Source: a virus
Taxonomy: Duplodnaviria > Heunggongvirae > Uroviricota > Caudoviricetes
Virus record (IMG/VR): IMGVR_UViG_2548876867_000014
Reading direction: 5' to 3' (one strand)
Length of the DNA: 5,339 nt
Below are positions 1 to 5,339 of this stretch, piece by piece. The position numbers were made by a program, and so were the translations under genes. The notes under the pieces were generated by a model. That model was given only the letters and a program-made list of their open reading frames with translations. It did no database searches and was not told where the DNA came from. Position 1 is the first letter of the stretch, and every line of letters begins with the position of its first letter.

Positions 1-270
<270 letters not shown>

Positions 271-293
271 TTACCGTTAAATCATTTTAAAAT

Positions 294-340
294 CAGTAAG
301 TTGTATCGAGTTTGTATGCTTTACTGTCATTAACTTACTG
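294..340. repeat. 9-bp perfect inverted repeat CAGTAAGTT (294-302) / AACTTACTG (332-340) with iterated TGTAT motifs in the yfhL-int intergenic region
   Basis: Read directly: the arms are exact reverse complements separated by 29 bp. TTGTAT/TGTATG recurs at 301-306, 312-318, 339-344 and 354-358. Function is unknown; possibilities are integrase arm/core sites or an operator. Confidence 0.4.
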
Positions 341-355
341 TATGTTGATCCAGTG
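336..355. promoter_or_regulatory. LexA (SOS) box-like sequence TACTGTATGTTGATCCAGTG
   Basis: CTGT-N8-cCAG, satisfying the CTG-N10-CAG core. The left half TACTGTAT is identical to the E. coli LexA consensus half-site (TACTGTATATATATACAGTA, from memory); the right half matches 6/8. It lies about 75 bp upstream of the yfhL ATG and about 120 bp upstream of the int ATG. Sequence-only call. Confidence 0.25.
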
Positions 356-475
356 TATTTAACCTTGATAAACTCAGTCCAGCAACACAAAACCGCAACA
401 CATTGCATTTTGTCCCGTAGAAAAGACTTGTATGTGTGAGCTTGTTTTCTGCGCCTACGCAGATAAGGATTGAGA

Positions 476-1873
476 ATGCCGCGCACTGTAACACATAATC
501 CGGATAGCCCCAATAATGACGATGTTTTAGCCGCTTCTGAAAAATGGGACGCCTGTAAACCCCCCTATACCAGCGCACACATGAAAATCTGTGTTGCTGC
601 CGCCAAAATCATCCTCGCTGCTTCCGGCGTGGCTCGCCGTTCCAAATACGAAAAAGAGAACTATCTCCGTATCGATTTCAGCAAAGCCGGTAAGGTTACA
701 TTTTACGCCGAGTTTCCAAAAAAGATGGGCCTCAAAGGTAAAAAGCTCGGCGAGTGGCCGGAGCTCGCTATCCAGCTGGCGCGCGAAAAAGCACTAGGTA
801 TGGCTGACGGTGGACTGCGGGCAGAGTCCGTACATGCAGCGCTGGAAATGTACCGGGATGACCTCAAAGCCAAAGTAGCCCGTCAGAAGCTGAGCCCGGA
901 CAGTTTCACAACCTACGGGGTGCGTATCGACCGGATTAAATCAACGTTCGGCGAGCGCGAGGTGTTCGGCGACGTAACATACAGTCGGCTGGTGGAAGTG
1001 CTGGACGAGTGGATCGCCACTCGCTCGAACAATAACGCCCTGGAGTTGTTTGCCGAGCTCCGTCGGTTCTGGAAGTTCTGCGCACCTACTCTTTGCAACG
1101 GCCGCAATGTTGCCGCCAGTCTGCCAGATGATTATGTTTCCTCCCGCGTACAGAAACCTACCCCCACACGGCTTTTTACCGATATTGAATCAATCGCCCG
1201 ACTCTGGCTCAATGTTGCTGCCTGCACCTCTGTACACCAGAAGAATGCTGTTCGCTTCATGATCATCACTGGTGTTCGTCCGATTAATGTCCATAACCTG
1301 CGCTGGGACTACGTTCACGAGGAGGCTGGTGAAATTGTTTATCCGGAAGGGGTTATCGGCATGCGAGGGGCTATGAAAACACAAAAGGCTTTCCGCCTGC
1401 CGATAACGCCTGAGATCCGGCGGATTATCGACGAGCAGAAAGCCTGGCGTGATTCAGTTCCTGAGTGCAACAGGGATTATGTATTTTTGCAGCCACGTGA
1501 TCCAATGCAGCCATTTTCAAAACGATCACTGGATAAGCTGGTGAAAACATACAGCCCGGACGGGGCTGTAAAAGGAATAAAACATGATGGGACTGTTAAA
1601 GGGAAAGACGGTGCATTTAATACGATGTGCCGTAAATTCCTTAAGAGCAATGTTATTGCCTTGATGAAGGAAAGAGGCTATTCCCGCTCAGACCGAAGGG
1701 AAATCAGCCTCCTTTGCCTTCACCACTCCAGCAAGTCAGATGACCCGATGGCAGAACATTACGACTTTTCTGATGAGATTTTACAGGAAGAGATTGCGTT
1801 GAAGCGCGAAGCTTTCGAGGCTCACGAGCGGAGCATACTTGCGCAGGTGGCATTGCTACGGCGGCGAGGTTAA
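476..1873 (+). CDS. int: Tyrosine recombinase / phage integrase, P4-like with N-terminal arm-binding domain
   Basis: Long ORF with ATG at 476 preceded by AAGGA (465-469) and a 6-nt spacer; the ORF track starts at an in-frame TTG at 470. The N-terminal stretch YLRIDFSKAGKVTFYAEF...LGEWPELAIQLAREKA resembles the DUF4102-type arm-binding domain of P4-family integrases. The C-terminal half has recombinase-like segments (ITGVRPINVHNLRW; HHSSKSDDPMAEHYDF with a candidate catalytic Tyr). TAA at 1871-1873. Confidence 0.82.
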   Translation: MPRTVTHNPDSPNNDDVLAASEKWDACKPPYTSAHMKICVAAAKIILAASGVARRSKYEKENYLRIDFSKAGKVTFYAEFPKKMGLKGKKLGEWPELAIQLAREKALGMADGGLRAESVHAALEMYRDDLKAKVARQKLSPDSFTTYGVRIDRIKSTFGEREVFGDVTYSRLVEVLDEWIATRSNNNALELFAELRRFWKFCAPTLCNGRNVAASLPDDYVSSRVQKPTPTRLFTDIESIARLWLNVAACTSVHQKNAVRFMIITGVRPINVHNLRWDYVHEEAGEIVYPEGVIGMRGAMKTQKAFRLPITPEIRRIIDEQKAWRDSVPECNRDYVFLQPRDPMQPFSKRSLDKLVKTYSPDGAVKGIKHDGTVKGKDGAFNTMCRKFLKSNVIALMKERGYSRSDRREISLLCLHHSSKSDDPMAEHYDFSDEILQEEIALKREAFEAHERSILAQVALLRRRG

Positions 1874-2070
1874 TACTGGCTGCGACATTTTTGAATAAAA
1901 GCGTCGACATTTCGGCGCTCATAACGAACTACTTTTGCACTGAAACGAATTGGTGCCAGGATAGCCCGATGACGATGCTTAATATTCAACTCACATAGCG
2001 TTTTCTGTGTAATACCTAACTTTTGGCATACTTCATCCGGGGTGAGTAAATCGTCGGGTTTCTCGCTCAT
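1870..2070 (-). CDS. AlpA/excisionase-family helix-turn-helix protein (putative Xis or small regulator)
   Basis: 66-codon ORF. LLTPDEVCQKLGITQKTL is the HTH typical of AlpA/Xis-type phage proteins. Its ATG (2070..2068) overlaps the helicase TGA (ATGA at 2067-2070), and its TAA (1872..1870) overlaps the integrase TAA (TTAA at 1870-1873). Confidence 0.72.
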   Translation of the reverse strand: MSEKPDDLLTPDEVCQKLGITQKTLCELNIKHRHRAILAPIRFSAKVVRYERRNVDAFIQKCRSQY

Positions 2071-3458
2071 GCTATACCTCTCTTTTTCATGGCATCGAGC
2101 AGGATGTCCTGCACTGTTCGTTTTGAGTTGCGCCGCTCCATCACCATTTCGTCCATAGTGTCGGCAGCAATAATGTGGTGAATAAATACCGGACGATTGT
2201 GTCCGGCCTGTATCTGTCTGGTTGGGCCGATACGTTCAATAATTTGCTGATATTGCTCCAGGTCCCACCAGTGTGAGAAAAATACCAGTATATTTCCGCC
2301 GTCCTGCATGTTCAGGCCGTGGCCCGCGCTGGCTGGGTGTGCAAAGAGAACAGGAATCTTTCCGGAATTCCAGTCGCGCAGTGTCTGTGGAGCCTGGTCG
2401 AGGTGACGACCGCGAGGGAATGCTTTAAGCAAGCGTTCAAGATCGTGTTTCCAGTGATAAGCAACCAGCACAGGTGCGCCAGCTGCTTCGGTCAGTATGC
2501 TGTCCAGCGCCTGTAGTTTGGTGTCATGCAGTTCTGACCAACTTCCGGTGTCATCTGTGTATACTGCGCCGCTGGCGATTTGCAGACACTTCAGTGTCTT
2601 TGCCGCGGCGTTCGGTGCTTCGATGCCTTCGCCATTCAGCTCGAGGAACATTTCCTTTTCCATTTCACGATACTGCTGACGGGCCTTCGGCGGCATATCC
2701 ACGCGGATTACGTTATGGATGGGGTCTTTGATATCGAACCAGTCGGCCGCATCCAGCGAGAGGGTCACATCGGCTAACGCTCGCTGTATTTCACCCTGTG
2801 AGTGAGCAAAAGGCTCCAGTTTGGTCCAGCTCTGCCCCGGAAACTGTATCGATTTGAACCAGCGTGAGGTAAACGCGCCGTAAGTGCGCCCGAGACGTTG
2901 CCCCTGGTCCACAAACCACGATTGTCCCCACAAATCTACCAGGCCGTTCGGTGCTGGCGTACCGGTGAGATTTATCCAGCGCCGGACATACTTGTGCGCC
3001 ACTTTGCCCAGCGCCGCCGCGCGCTTACCACCACCTCGCAGCCGGAAGGATTTTAGCCGGGTGCTTTCATCTGGAATGACAGTACCGAACGACCATCGTT
3101 CTCCCAATTCTTCAACCAGCCAGACAAGGTTATCGTAGTTGATTGTGAACACGCTCGCGTTGCTGTTCGCCAGCGCTGTAGAGCGCGCTTTGGCGTTACC
3201 GATGATCGGCTGTACCTCAATATTACGCAGATGCCCCCATTTAACAGCTTCATCAGGCCAAGTGCTTGCTGCAACGCGTAGCGGCGCGAGGACCAGCGCG
3301 GGGCGTGTTTCTGCTCCAGCCATGAAAAGATCTTCCAGCGTGGTGAGTGTCGCTACGGTTTTACCCATCCCCATCCCTGCCCAGATGTTGCCGCGCAGGG
3401 TCTCGATTTGATGATTGATGATGAGATCTTGGTAGGGACGTGGTTTAAAAGTTATCAT
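2067..3458 (-). CDS. SNF2/RAD54-family DNA helicase/ATPase (phage replication-recombination module)
   Basis: 463-codon ORF with ordered motifs: RPYQ (Q motif, residues 7-10), GMGKT (Walker A), DEST (motif II, DExx), LTGTPAPN (motif III), and a C-terminal lobe with QQIIERIGPTRQ (motif VI-like). Start ATG at 3458 is preceded by AGGGA about 8 nt upstream on the - strand. Confidence 0.85.
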   Translation of the reverse strand: MITFKPRPYQDLIINHQIETLRGNIWAGMGMGKTVATLTTLEDLFMAGAETRPALVLAPLRVAASTWPDEAVKWGHLRNIEVQPIIGNAKARSTALANSNASVFTINYDNLVWLVEELGERWSFGTVIPDESTRLKSFRLRGGGKRAAALGKVAHKYVRRWINLTGTPAPNGLVDLWGQSWFVDQGQRLGRTYGAFTSRWFKSIQFPGQSWTKLEPFAHSQGEIQRALADVTLSLDAADWFDIKDPIHNVIRVDMPPKARQQYREMEKEMFLELNGEGIEAPNAAAKTLKCLQIASGAVYTDDTGSWSELHDTKLQALDSILTEAAGAPVLVAYHWKHDLERLLKAFPRGRHLDQAPQTLRDWNSGKIPVLFAHPASAGHGLNMQDGGNILVFFSHWWDLEQYQQIIERIGPTRQIQAGHNRPVFIHHIIAADTMDEMVMERRNSKRTVQDILLDAMKKRGIA

Positions 3459-3481
3459 GAAGAAAATCCCTGATTAGAAAG

Positions 3482-4207
3482 GTGCTCTTGAACATCATGA
3501 ATGTAAAAGATTTATCAATTACAACGGTTCTCTTGGCCGCCCTTTATTTTATGGCTTTTTCTTTTTACAAAGGGTACAGCTCATTTTATGGATTCCCTGT
3601 AAGTTTTATTTCTATTGGGATTGAGGAAATAGTTAAATTTTCTGTTATTGCATTAGGACTTTTGTGCACCTTAGTCGCTTTGCTGCATATTGATACTGAA
3701 GAGAAGAATATTCCATGGTGGGTGTATTTATTTTTCTTCATTTTGGCCTCTTTGCTTTCATACTGGACAATGTATTTATATGGCGGTAGCTCATACCTTT
3801 ATGAAAAATCCATAAGGGATGTGGCTACCCAAGCAATACTGTTGGGATTTATTAGCCCTATCAGTGTCAGGGCAGTATCTGTTTTTATTAGGAATGAATT
3901 TAGAATAAAAAACAAAACTCATGGGGTTATGCTTTTTATATCCATAGCAATGCTTCCTTCAGTCCTTGGGTGGGCATGGGCATACTTATCAGATGAGCCT
4001 CTTTTTTATTCTAAAAAATATGATGCTTATATTATCGAAAGCTATAACGGAAAATTTGTCTTGGGGAACTGTAAAAAAAATAGCTCTGAATTTATGAGTG
4101 TCGAAGGAATTGAGGGGAAATTAATTCCTGTAAGCATAAAAGAAACACAACAACTAAAAGTATGTTTTTTAAAAGCTTCTAAGCTCAAGAAAAATCGCTC
4201 AGAATGA
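3482..4207 (+). CDS. Hypothetical multi-pass membrane protein, AT-rich moron; no recognisable catalytic motif
   Basis: ORF on the strand opposite to all flanking phage genes. Start is GTG 3482 or more likely ATG 3497 (MNVKDL...). Hand counts of sample 60-nt stretches give about one-third G+C (3541-3600), against about 65% in a helicase sample (3001-3060). About five hydrophobic segments: LSITTVLLAALYFMAFSFY, FSVIALGLLCTLVALLHI, IPWWVYLFFFILASLLSYWTMYLY, AILLGFISPISVRAVSVFI, GVMLFISIAMLPSVLGWAWAYL. These are followed by a roughly 70-aa hydrophilic, Lys-rich C-terminal region. Stop TGA at 4205-4207, 5 bp from the convergent VRR-NUC stop. Confidence 0.6.
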   Translation: MLLNIMNVKDLSITTVLLAALYFMAFSFYKGYSSFYGFPVSFISIGIEEIVKFSVIALGLLCTLVALLHIDTEEKNIPWWVYLFFFILASLLSYWTMYLYGGSSYLYEKSIRDVATQAILLGFISPISVRAVSVFIRNEFRIKNKTHGVMLFISIAMLPSVLGWAWAYLSDEPLFYSKKYDAYIIESYNGKFVLGNCKKNSSEFMSVEGIEGKLIPVSIKETQQLKVCFLKASKLKKNRSE

Positions 4208-4212
4208 TTGTC

Positions 4213-4482
4213 TCACAATATCCCCTCTAAATTTTTGCTATCCAGCACCACCACGGTAAAGCCCAGTTTTCGCAGACGTTCATGTTCGCGCAACTGGTCA
4301 GGCCGTGGTGGCTTGCCGGGAGATTTACATTCAACGAAAACGATACGACCGCCTGGTAGCAGGACAATGCGATCCGGTACCGAGCGGTGACCGGGAGATA
4401 CAAACTTAAAGGCCACTCCGCCAGCTTTTTTCACTTCAGCGACGAGGTGCTTTTCGATAAGGCTTTCACGTTCATAGGCCAT
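4213..4482 (-). CDS. VRR-NUC domain nuclease (PD-(D/E)xK superfamily)
   Basis: Signature SVPDRIVLL...IVFVECK (PD...E-x-K) followed by QLREHERLRKLGFTVVV, typical of VRR-NUC proteins. Start taken as ATG 4482 (MAYERE...), which overlaps the end of the upstream gene by 11 nt; an alternative in-frame ATG lies at 4509. Stop TGA at 4215..4213. Confidence 0.8.
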   Translation of the reverse strand: MAYERESLIEKHLVAEVKKAGGVAFKFVSPGHRSVPDRIVLLPGGRIVFVECKSPGKPPRPDQLREHERLRKLGFTVVVLDSKNLEGIL

Positions 4483-4771
4483 CTGAATCCCACTCTTCAA
4501 AAAGCACATTCAATTCCAGTTTCTCTGCCAACGCGTTTTCTGCACGTGCGCCAGCAGAGTACTCCCACTCTTTGAGCATATAAATCGTATCGGCACAGCG
4601 AAGCATTGCGAGGCAGATGTCCATGTACTGAGCCTGTGTCAAACCATTGGGTAAAGTTGCGGGGTTAAGCACAACATATCCCTTGTCCGTTAGCCTTTTT
4701 GCTGCGGAATGAAAGGCCGGGCGGTTAAATTGCTCGTAACCGCTCATCGGCCCGGCAACGTAAACGATCAT
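4472..4771 (-). CDS. DUF4406-like protein (nucleoside 2-deoxyribosyltransferase-like fold)
   Basis: 99-codon ORF. The N-terminus MIVYVAGPMSGYEQFNRPAF and overall size resemble DUF4406 proteins that I recall from phage genomes (memory-based, not searched). Its ATG overlaps the stop of the upstream ORF (ATGA at 4768-4771). Confidence 0.65.
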   Translation of the reverse strand: MIVYVAGPMSGYEQFNRPAFHSAAKRLTDKGYVVLNPATLPNGLTQAQYMDICLAMLRCADTIYMLKEWEYSAGARAENALAEKLELNVLFEEWDSDGL

Positions 4772-4983
4772 TCTTCGACCGCCTTACGCTTTTCACGCAT
4801 GTTCTGCATCAGGCAAAAATCAGATCTGCGTTCACTCCATTCCTGATTCAGTTCGTGATGTGATTCGCGGTTGGCTTTTGCCCAGACCTCCGCTGCCCGG
4901 TCATATTCGCCGGATTGTTCAAGTCGCAAAGCTTCCCTTGCAGCCCTGTAATAAAGTGGATTGTCCCGGTATTTAAATGACAT
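4768..4983 (-). CDS. Small hypothetical protein, tentatively ANR-family (AraC-negative-regulator, Aar-like)
   Basis: 71-codon ORF. The pattern A..EALRLEQSGEY..AAEVWAKA...N.EW..RR.DFC resembles small ANR-family proteins as I recall them. AAGGA lies 9 nt upstream of the ATG on the - strand. It is translationally coupled to the downstream gene. Family assignment is tentative. Confidence 0.5.
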   Translation of the reverse strand: MSFKYRDNPLYYRAAREALRLEQSGEYDRAAEVWAKANRESHHELNQEWSERRSDFCLMQNMREKRKAVEE

Positions 4984-4988
4984 AGGAG

Positions 4989-5339
4989 TTAATCCTTACG
5001 GTAGTGGTACGCCTCAAAACCGCCAGCGTTCAGTGGGATATCGGGCGCCCATTCGGGGTTAGTGGAGAGAAGTGCGGAAAGCGCTTTATCGTTGAAATCT
5101 TCTGTGTCAGGTGCTTCGGTGATCACCTCGTCGTGTACCGTCAGCACAATGCTGTAACCGGCATCTTCGATAAGCGGCATGTTTCCGGCCAGAATGTCGC
5201 GGGCGGCCGCCTGGGTGATGTTCTCCACCAGCTTTCCGCCGTAGGTTTTGAGTCGTTGCCATTTACGCGAATAAGAGTTAACCCCTAGACTGGCCCCCTG
5301 AATCTCCAGACAACCAGTATCACTTAAATAAGTGATAGT
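4989..5339 (-). CDS. Family-A DNA polymerase, C-terminal fragment (N-terminus lies beyond the window edge)
   Basis: The - strand frame is open from 5339 with no stop until TAA at 4991..4989, so the GTG at 5228 in the ORF track is probably internal. The C-terminus [11 protein letters not shown]...[15 protein letters not shown]...[17 protein letters not shown] aligns by eye with E. coli Pol I (recalled from memory: QGTAADIIK...MIMQVHDELVFE...DVPLLVEVGSGENWDQAH), including the motif C HDE. Confidence 0.62.

Follow-up and report, generated by a model that had tools for sequence, protein, structure and literature searches.

An ANR family gene in the DNA polymerase operon of a temperate phage lineage

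What kind of protein is encoded by the short open reading frame (ORF) at 4768..4983, and what would such a protein do among the replication genes of a phage? The question was raised by a preliminary description of the 5,339-nt stretch of viral DNA analysed here, called the window throughout, which placed at this position a 71-residue protein resembling the ANR family and carried inside a phage early operon. The ORF listing confirmed the ORF on the minus strand, with an ATG start and a product of 71 residues (MSFKYRDNPLYYRAAREALRLEQSGEYDRAAEVWAKANRESHHELNQEWSERRSDFCLMQNMREKRKAVEE). The following features of the window are relevant to it:

2067..3458, minus strand: SNF2-type helicase gene (phrog_62, E=9e-157; PF00176), in the same leftward array, further downstream
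4213..4509, minus strand: VRR-NUC nuclease gene (phrog_93, E=1.6e-32; weak match to PF08774)
4472..4771, minus strand: DUF4406 gene, nucleoside 2-deoxyribosyltransferase-like (PF14359, E=6.3e-34; phrog_355)
4768..4983, minus strand: ANR-family gene, 71 aa, 8.71 kDa (8711 Da), ATG start
4989..5285, minus strand: 3' remnant of a phage family-A DNA polymerase gene (phrog_7766, E=1.1e-35), directly upstream of the ANR gene
4992..4996, minus strand: Shine-Dalgarno-like AAGGA, 9 nt 5' of the ANR ATG and within the last polymerase codons, by reading of the sequence
5286..5339, plus strand: left end of IS2 (54 nt), inside the polymerase gene, with the transposase reading away from the ANR gene

The ORF at 4768..4983 is not a product of chance, since it has 101 close homologues in a set of 5.8 billion proteins, most of them named 'ANR family transcriptional regulator' by their source, since an exhaustive profile search with the family of the 71-aa protein gave 163 cluster representatives, and since its median dN/dS was 0.073 (Nei-Gojobori, window gene against 58 distinct phage copies with dS>0.1). 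The gene is under strong purifying selection. Two plus-strand ORFs, at 4709-4846 and 4860-4976, were taken to be by-products of the minus-strand gene, given that the purifying selection acts on the minus-strand codon frame.

A count over 5426 complete E. coli genomes gave 146 carriers, each with the gene on the chromosome. Carriers of the ANR subfamily of the window include ETEC H10407, O55:H7 and many STEC, among them O26/O111-type strains. The identical protein is found in RefSeq as WP_001419980.1, under the name "ANR family transcriptional regulator". The same accession, encoded by DNA 100% identical to the gene of the window, was found in an uninterrupted prophage of the O55:H7 strain DEC5E, which the 2014 ANR paper placed in the SF1 group. 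Two E. coli homologues (P0003 and P0005) had in-frame tandem duplications of AAKVW (15 nt) in helix 2, giving proteins of 76 and 81 residues.

The preliminary description had assigned the protein to the ANR (AraC negative regulator) family and proposed a profile search as a check, and this search bore the assignment out. The NCBIfam model NF033650 (ANR_neg_reg, curated cutoff 32 bits) matched the window protein with 70.1 bits (E=1e-19) over profile positions 2-54 of 54 (53 positions), which is higher than the scores of the tested members Aar (65.7 bits) and Rnr (56.9 bits). The sequence of Aar was taken from plasmid pAA of EAEC 042 (NC_017627.1) and that of Rnr from EPEC E2348/69, with the coordinates given in PMC10148876. 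The cores of the three proteins aligned without gaps, and nine residues were invariant (A18, E22, A30, W34, A37, W49, R53, F56 and C57, in the numbering of the window protein). The published ANR signature, consisting of A10, E14, A22, W26, A29, W43, R47 and a conserved Cys (PMC4983702), is complete in the window protein, as A18, E22, A30, W34, A37, W49, R53 and C57. The activity of Aar is abolished by altering A14, E18, A26 or W45 (PMC4983702); the counterparts of these residues in the three-way ungapped alignment are A18, E22, A30 and W49. A wider alignment of 128 diverse small proteins taken from the exhaustive search showed A18, E22, A30, W34 and R53 to be invariant and A37, N46, W49 and C57 to be at least 90% conserved, and all 128 relatives were matched by NF033650.

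Size and divergence are in line with this assignment. ANR proteins are described as smaller than 10 kDa and 39-80 aa long (PMC4038620, PMC10148876), a range that includes the window protein with its 71 aa and 8711 Da. The mass also lies inside the 8.5-9.05 kDa range of the Rnr-type 'Clade-2' ANRs. The window protein is 35% identical to Rnr in an alignment of 46 residues and 26% identical to Aar in one of 47; Rnr and Aar share 25% identity (PMC10148876), and the window protein appears about as distant from the two as they are from each other. Judged by its sequence, the product of 4768..4983 is a genuine member of the ANR family.

Could the protein be an activator instead? PerC-family proteins are small, often borne on phages or satellites, and activate the LEE1/ler promoter in attaching-effacing E. 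coli. Pfam is without an ANR model, and the nearest family there is PerC (PF06069), which matched the window protein with 20.8 bits (E=4.6e-4) and thus below its gathering threshold of 22.6. A BLASTP comparison of the window protein with EPEC PerC gave E=2e-5 over 53 residues, hhalign a probability of 68%, and six residues were common to both (A18, E22, A30, W34, F56 and C57, which make up the A..E..A..W and FC core motifs). Three PHROG families labelled 'transcriptional activator' matched as well (E=2e-6 to 1e-3), and many of the host strains are LEE-positive STEC. All this would suit a transcriptional activator of the PerC/Pch type and not a negative regulator, but we consider such an identity very unlikely. 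PerC is longer (89 aa), is without the signature residues A37 and W49, and reaches 18.2 bits on NF033650, short of the cutoff of 32 bits, compared to 70.1 bits for the window protein. A match to the PerC model, and a weak one, was seen in only 19 of the 128 ANR relatives, against 128 of 128 for the ANR model. ANR and PerC look like distant relatives, both being small helical regulators often found on phages or satellites, although PerC activates LEE1 rather than repressing it. By these scores and residues, the window protein falls clearly on the ANR side of the ANR/PerC split.

A family name does not fix the sign of the effect. EcCIMP1_025, a satellite gene annotated as PerC, represses LEE1, and its authors suspect it to be an ANR (PMC11773190). 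Because this effect is opposite to that of PerC, the direction of regulation in the superfamily is unreadable from sequence or name. By its description, EcCIMP1_025 resembles the window gene in being a small ANR/PerC-superfamily gene on a phage-related mobile element, but its carrier is an E. coli phage-inducible chromosomal island (a satellite) and not a phage.

The fold of the window protein was predicted by AlphaFold2 from a 36-sequence alignment, giving helices at residues 9-24, 27-40 and 44-70 with a mean pLDDT of 81. This predicted architecture, three helices and no beta strands, agrees with the description of the ANR family. The Pfam search showed no helix-turn-helix or other DNA-binding domain in the window protein. 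In a Foldseek search against the PDB the best hit had E=0.25, with none below, and the closest shapes were TPR/MIT three-helix protein-binding modules; a sequence search against the PDB gave nothing meaningful (best E=1, TPR-like repeats). For TPR, the window protein had no Pfam match at E<=0.1, and the matches of Rnr were sub-threshold only. The TPR likeness of the window protein is a resemblance only. Six long proteins (P0122, P0145, P0149, P0165, P0202 and P0211; 339-1534 aa) matched the ANR profile in 4-6 separate stretches each, consistent with an ANR helix 1-helix 2 unit that resembles a TPR-like repeat. Known anti-repressor domains (Ant, KilAC or Bro-type) were absent from the Pfam, NCBIfam and PHROGs results, and the genomic context gave no support for such a role either; the anti-repressor-like function put forward in the preliminary description was therefore abandoned.

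The surroundings of the gene were reconstructed from E. coli chromosomes, which matched positions 1-5285 of the window with 98-99% identity. In strain 97-3250, the matching region is a prophage adjoining yfhL. Its genes come in the order LexA-like repressor, two hypothetical genes, DUF2800, DUF2815, Nmad5, DNA polymerase, ANR, DUF4406, VRR-NUC, SNF2 helicase and HTH protein, followed by the integrase on the other strand; the primase, the Q antiterminator, the lysis genes and the head genes are found further on. The intact polymerase gene encodes 687 aa (L001, L011). The integration next to yfhL was noted at window positions 262-475, with no tRNA or tmRNA gene at the junction by ARAGORN, and neither Rfam nor ARAGORN found RNA genes anywhere in the window. 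We infer the 'early' status of the operon from its gene content and arrangement, and to this extent the phage early operon of the preliminary description holds, in a prophage with repressor, polymerase, helicase and integrase genes. AraC-family genes were absent both from the window and from the 45 kb surrounding the intact prophage.

The junctions of the ANR gene are tight. As read from the sequence, only 5 nt separate the ANR ATG from the upstream polymerase stop codon, and the end of the ANR gene overlaps with the beginning of DUF4406 in the sequence ATGA. For VRR-NUC, RefSeq uses a later start (the equivalent of window 4214-4483). The flanks of the ANR gene leave no intergenic gap big enough for a promoter of its own, and between 5339 and 4213 no promoter- or terminator-like sites were found on the minus strand by consensus promoter scans, which are insensitive. 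Co-transcription of ANR and polymerase fits this lack of sites between 5339 and 4213, with such scans being weak evidence.

The operon is broken in the window. A BLAST search with the last 54 nt (5286-5339) gave 18441 sites, spread over 4491 genomes of E. coli, and in one of the loci (L171) they lie 38 nt upstream of a CDS annotated as 'IS3-like element IS2 family transposase'. Intact prophages align up to 5285 only. Positions 5286-5339 are IS2 and not phage DNA. Because the 54 nt recur genome-wide and precede the IS2 transposase, it was IS2 that cut the polymerase gene, and the interruption leaves the prophage in the window defective for its own polymerase.

IS2 is positioned between the ANR gene and the upstream promoter of the operon, and it probably lowers or abolishes ANR expression from this promoter in the window copy. 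The gene might then be silent, its ORF intact but left behind in a prophage that is decaying. The truncation of the polymerase at 5286, the separation of ANR from the operon promoter and the lack of a promoter-like site upstream of the gene on the minus strand, in scans of low sensitivity, all point in this direction, and we regard the idea as plausible but less likely than not. The ORF is intact, and its identity at every nucleotide to the uninterrupted DEC5E copy means that any silencing would be recent. Moreover, the silencing would concern expression in one strain and not the identity of the protein.

To what extent the gene belongs to the phage lineage was seen from two sets of loci. The first set was selected on ANR itself and consisted of 88 loci (80 viral contigs, five genomes and three phage records). 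A scan of species-representative genomes gave five loci; its back-translated patterns were subfamily-specific, and C. rodentium was missed. Every one of the 88 ANR-selected loci had VRR-NUC and the SNF2 helicase downstream of ANR on its strand, and 86 had the polymerase upstream, the remaining two being cut by contig ends. Because these loci had been selected on ANR, a second set was drawn on the helicase alone, with 76 loci having a complete polymerase-to-VRR-NUC interval. ANR was present between polymerase and VRR-NUC in 74 of the 76, intact in ~64 and split by a frameshift in ~10. The split copies form two overlapping ORFs (L103, L105, L106, L116-L118, L121, L125, L127 and L132). Frameshifted ANR genes were also found in the E. 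coli phages vB_EcoM-689R2 (L002 2675-3040), 606R2 and 611R5, and most ANR copies of APSE were annotated as decayed or pseudogenised by the APSE annotators.

The interval between polymerase and VRR-NUC ranged from 219 to 2331 bp in the helicase-selected loci, and DUF4406 was accessory cargo, with only 18 carriers among the 88 ANR-selected loci. With an interval this variable and DUF4406 this sparse, ANR is the fixed part of a slot whose other cargo changes. The sequenced E. coli phages have a TIR-like domain protein in place of DUF4406 (vB_EcoM-689R2, L002 3105-3866). The same gene order was present in Yersinia phage YeP5 and Hamiltonella phage APSE-7. One temperate-phage lineage, comprising the E. 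coli yfhL prophages, Yersinia YeP4-6 and Hamiltonella APSE, has ANR as a near-core gene. The frameshifted and decayed copies indicate that, in some hosts at least, the phage can propagate without ANR, and that the gene is helpful rather than essential.

The genomic homes of other ANR genes were then considered. The EPEC Rnr gene belongs to the early genes of a Mu-like (transposable) prophage, in the order repressor, Ner-like protein, transposase A, MuB-like ATPase, DUF3164 and ANR, with Mor further on. A 'phage-encoded region' was given as the location of the C. rodentium Rnr homologue in the 2014 ANR paper. In Mu-like prophages (L177-L180) the ANR gene is fixed after DUF3164 and before GemA and Mor, the same place as that of Rnr (L009 15410-15643).

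Twelve distant representatives of the exhaustive search were looked at for context, a small, hand-picked and non-random sample in which ten were informative. Four of these ten were in Mu-like early regions, at the same spot as Rnr (P0130, P0147, P0160, P0185), and two in other temperate-phage early regions, either after a Dam methylase (P0124) or beside a weak PerC match, arranged in tandem, in a lambdoid nin-like region (P0152). Plasmid, conjugative or fimbrial settings accounted for three (P0142, P0171, P0200), and P0112 was in an island of unclear type; the contigs of P0215 and P0225 were too short to judge. This suggests that ANR genes often reside in phage early regions.

One may go further and suppose that the ANR family is, at its root, a family of temperate-phage early genes whose original role was to neutralise nucleoid silencers of the host, H-NS above all, or its AraC-type regulators at the moment a phage or prophage becomes active, with the plasmid-borne Aar-like 'antivirulence' regulators as domesticated offshoots. 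The proposal builds on the near-core status of ANR (74 of 76 loci), on Rnr together with the Mu-like (4/10) and other phage (2/10) settings, and on the plasmid or fimbrial settings being only 3/10. We put it forward tentatively, as a possibility that may well turn out wrong.

As to what the protein would do, the experimentally tested relatives give the best guide. The tested ANRs act without binding DNA. Aar attaches to AggR at its central linker, which keeps AggR from dimerising and from binding DNA, and other AraC-family proteins are bound by Aar as well (PMC4983702). H-NS is a further partner of Aar, which modulates silencing by H-NS (PMC5570504). The proteins bound by Rnr are H-NS and Ler, and the expression of >500 host genes was changed by it (PMC10148876). 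The role that the preliminary description had given for the family, antagonism of AraC-family activators and interaction with nucleoid proteins, agrees with these reports (PMC4983702, PMC5570504). EPEC Rnr is a precedent for a prophage-borne ANR altering host transcription.

The reading we favour, and consider fairly probable, is that the window gene encodes a true ANR, made from the phage replication operon and most likely binding host AraC/XylS-type activators and/or H-NS-family proteins. The protein would be translated from the leftward replication operon, right after the DNA polymerase gene, and made mainly once infection or induction has lifted the repression of the operon, with low-level expression in the lysogen being possible. 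It would contact host AraC/XylS-type activators and/or H-NS-family nucleoid proteins by protein-protein interaction, without binding DNA itself. The bound proteins would oligomerise less and bind less DNA, and host transcription, possibly also that of the phage, would be shifted. We infer partners, transcriptional effect and timing, with the tested ANRs Aar, Cnr and Rnr as the guide. ANR-like action is the best-supported reading because all conserved family residues are kept, including those needed by Aar. Counting against it are the low identity to Rnr and Aar, the missing AraC-family neighbour, the frameshifts in ~10 of 76 copies, the decay of most APSE copies, the PerC-opposed effect of EcCIMP1_025 and the cut by IS2.

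A different partner has to be weighed here, namely a phage protein. The gene has a fixed place relative to polymerase and VRR-NUC (86-88 of 88 loci), occurs in 74 of the 76 loci selected on the helicase, keeps its position across E. coli, Yersinia and Hamiltonella phages and has tight junctions with its neighbours, as could be expected of a small TPR-like adaptor for the replication or recombination machinery that resembles ANR by common fold only. We think this unlikely, as other ANRs are found after DUF3164 in Mu-like phages, after Dam, in a lambdoid nin-like region and on plasmids, contexts so varied that adjacency to the polymerase appears specific to the lineage of the window. Different phage types thus place ANR in different early modules, which points to a partner from the host and away from the adjacent polymerase. 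The residues required for the host-directed activity of Aar are all conserved, and the persistence of frameshifted copies in sequenced phages argues against an essential replication role.

Host-directed ANR action, the favoured reading, can be set against known systems. The closest is Rnr (RegA-negative regulator; E2348C_2635 in EPEC, ROD_02851 in C. rodentium), which belongs to the same NCBIfam family and has the same signature. It is 77 aa long compared to 71 aa, and both are encoded in temperate-prophage early regions, but Rnr follows DUF3164 in a Mu-like prophage, whereas the window gene follows the polymerase in an APSE/YeP-like prophage. Rnr has been tested experimentally and represses LEE. 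Aar (AggR-activated regulator of EAEC 042), the founding ANR, is similar to the window protein in its ungapped core, its three predicted helices and the lack of a DNA-binding domain. It differs in its location near aggR, on the virulence plasmid pAA, and in being activated by AggR, whereas the window gene is in a phage replication operon. Aar and Cnr adjoin their cognate AraC-family activator, and the window gene has no AraC-family neighbour. A locus of the Aar/Cnr type, divergent from the cognate activator, is absent for both the window gene and Rnr; since Rnr also does without it, the arrangement is not family-defining. A functional analogy, and that alone, exists with phage antagonists of H-NS such as T7 gp5.5, a small early phage protein that binds the H-NS oligomerisation region (cited in PMC5570504). 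The window protein could have a gp5.5-like role if H-NS were its main target.

The feature itself is already known: the protein is named in RefSeq, and the family has been described, with prophage-borne members that were tested. The new part is descriptive only, and consists of the near-core status of ANR in the APSE/YeP-like polymerase operon and of the frequent location of ANRs in phage early regions. In enteric pathogens, the ANRs that have been tested dampen both virulence and gene expression at the global level, which makes the family of interest. According to a 2025 paper, the distribution of ANRs on mobile elements and their benefit to these elements are still open (PMC11773190). Our data suggest that many ANRs are conserved temperate-phage early genes, either of the APSE/YeP-like polymerase operon or of the Mu-like early region. 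If true, this would give a phage-centred reason for the existence of the family, and prophage induction could couple to shifts in host regulation (H-NS, acid resistance, LEE). The subfamily of the window would be a convenient test case, because it is present in STEC O26/O111-type strains, O55:H7 and ETEC H10407.

Two minor observations were made along the way. Between VRR-NUC and helicase, on the opposite strand (window 3482-4207, plus), is a hydrophobic ORF of 241 aa with a GC content of 0.344, compared to 0.485 for the window, and with no match in Pfam, NCBIfam, PHROGs or PADLOC; the PADLOC models likewise did not match the ANR protein, DUF4406 or VRR-NUC. The slot holds other cargo in DEC5E (a hypothetical gene and a Dcm methylase) and in vB_EcoM-689R2, and the 241-aa ORF looks like a moron of unknown function. 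In a lambdoid prophage (L182 5756-6195), an 82-aa ORF with a weak PerC match and a 64-aa ANR ORF stand in tandem, with overlapping stop and start; this PerC-like/ANR pair could help to clarify how the two families relate.
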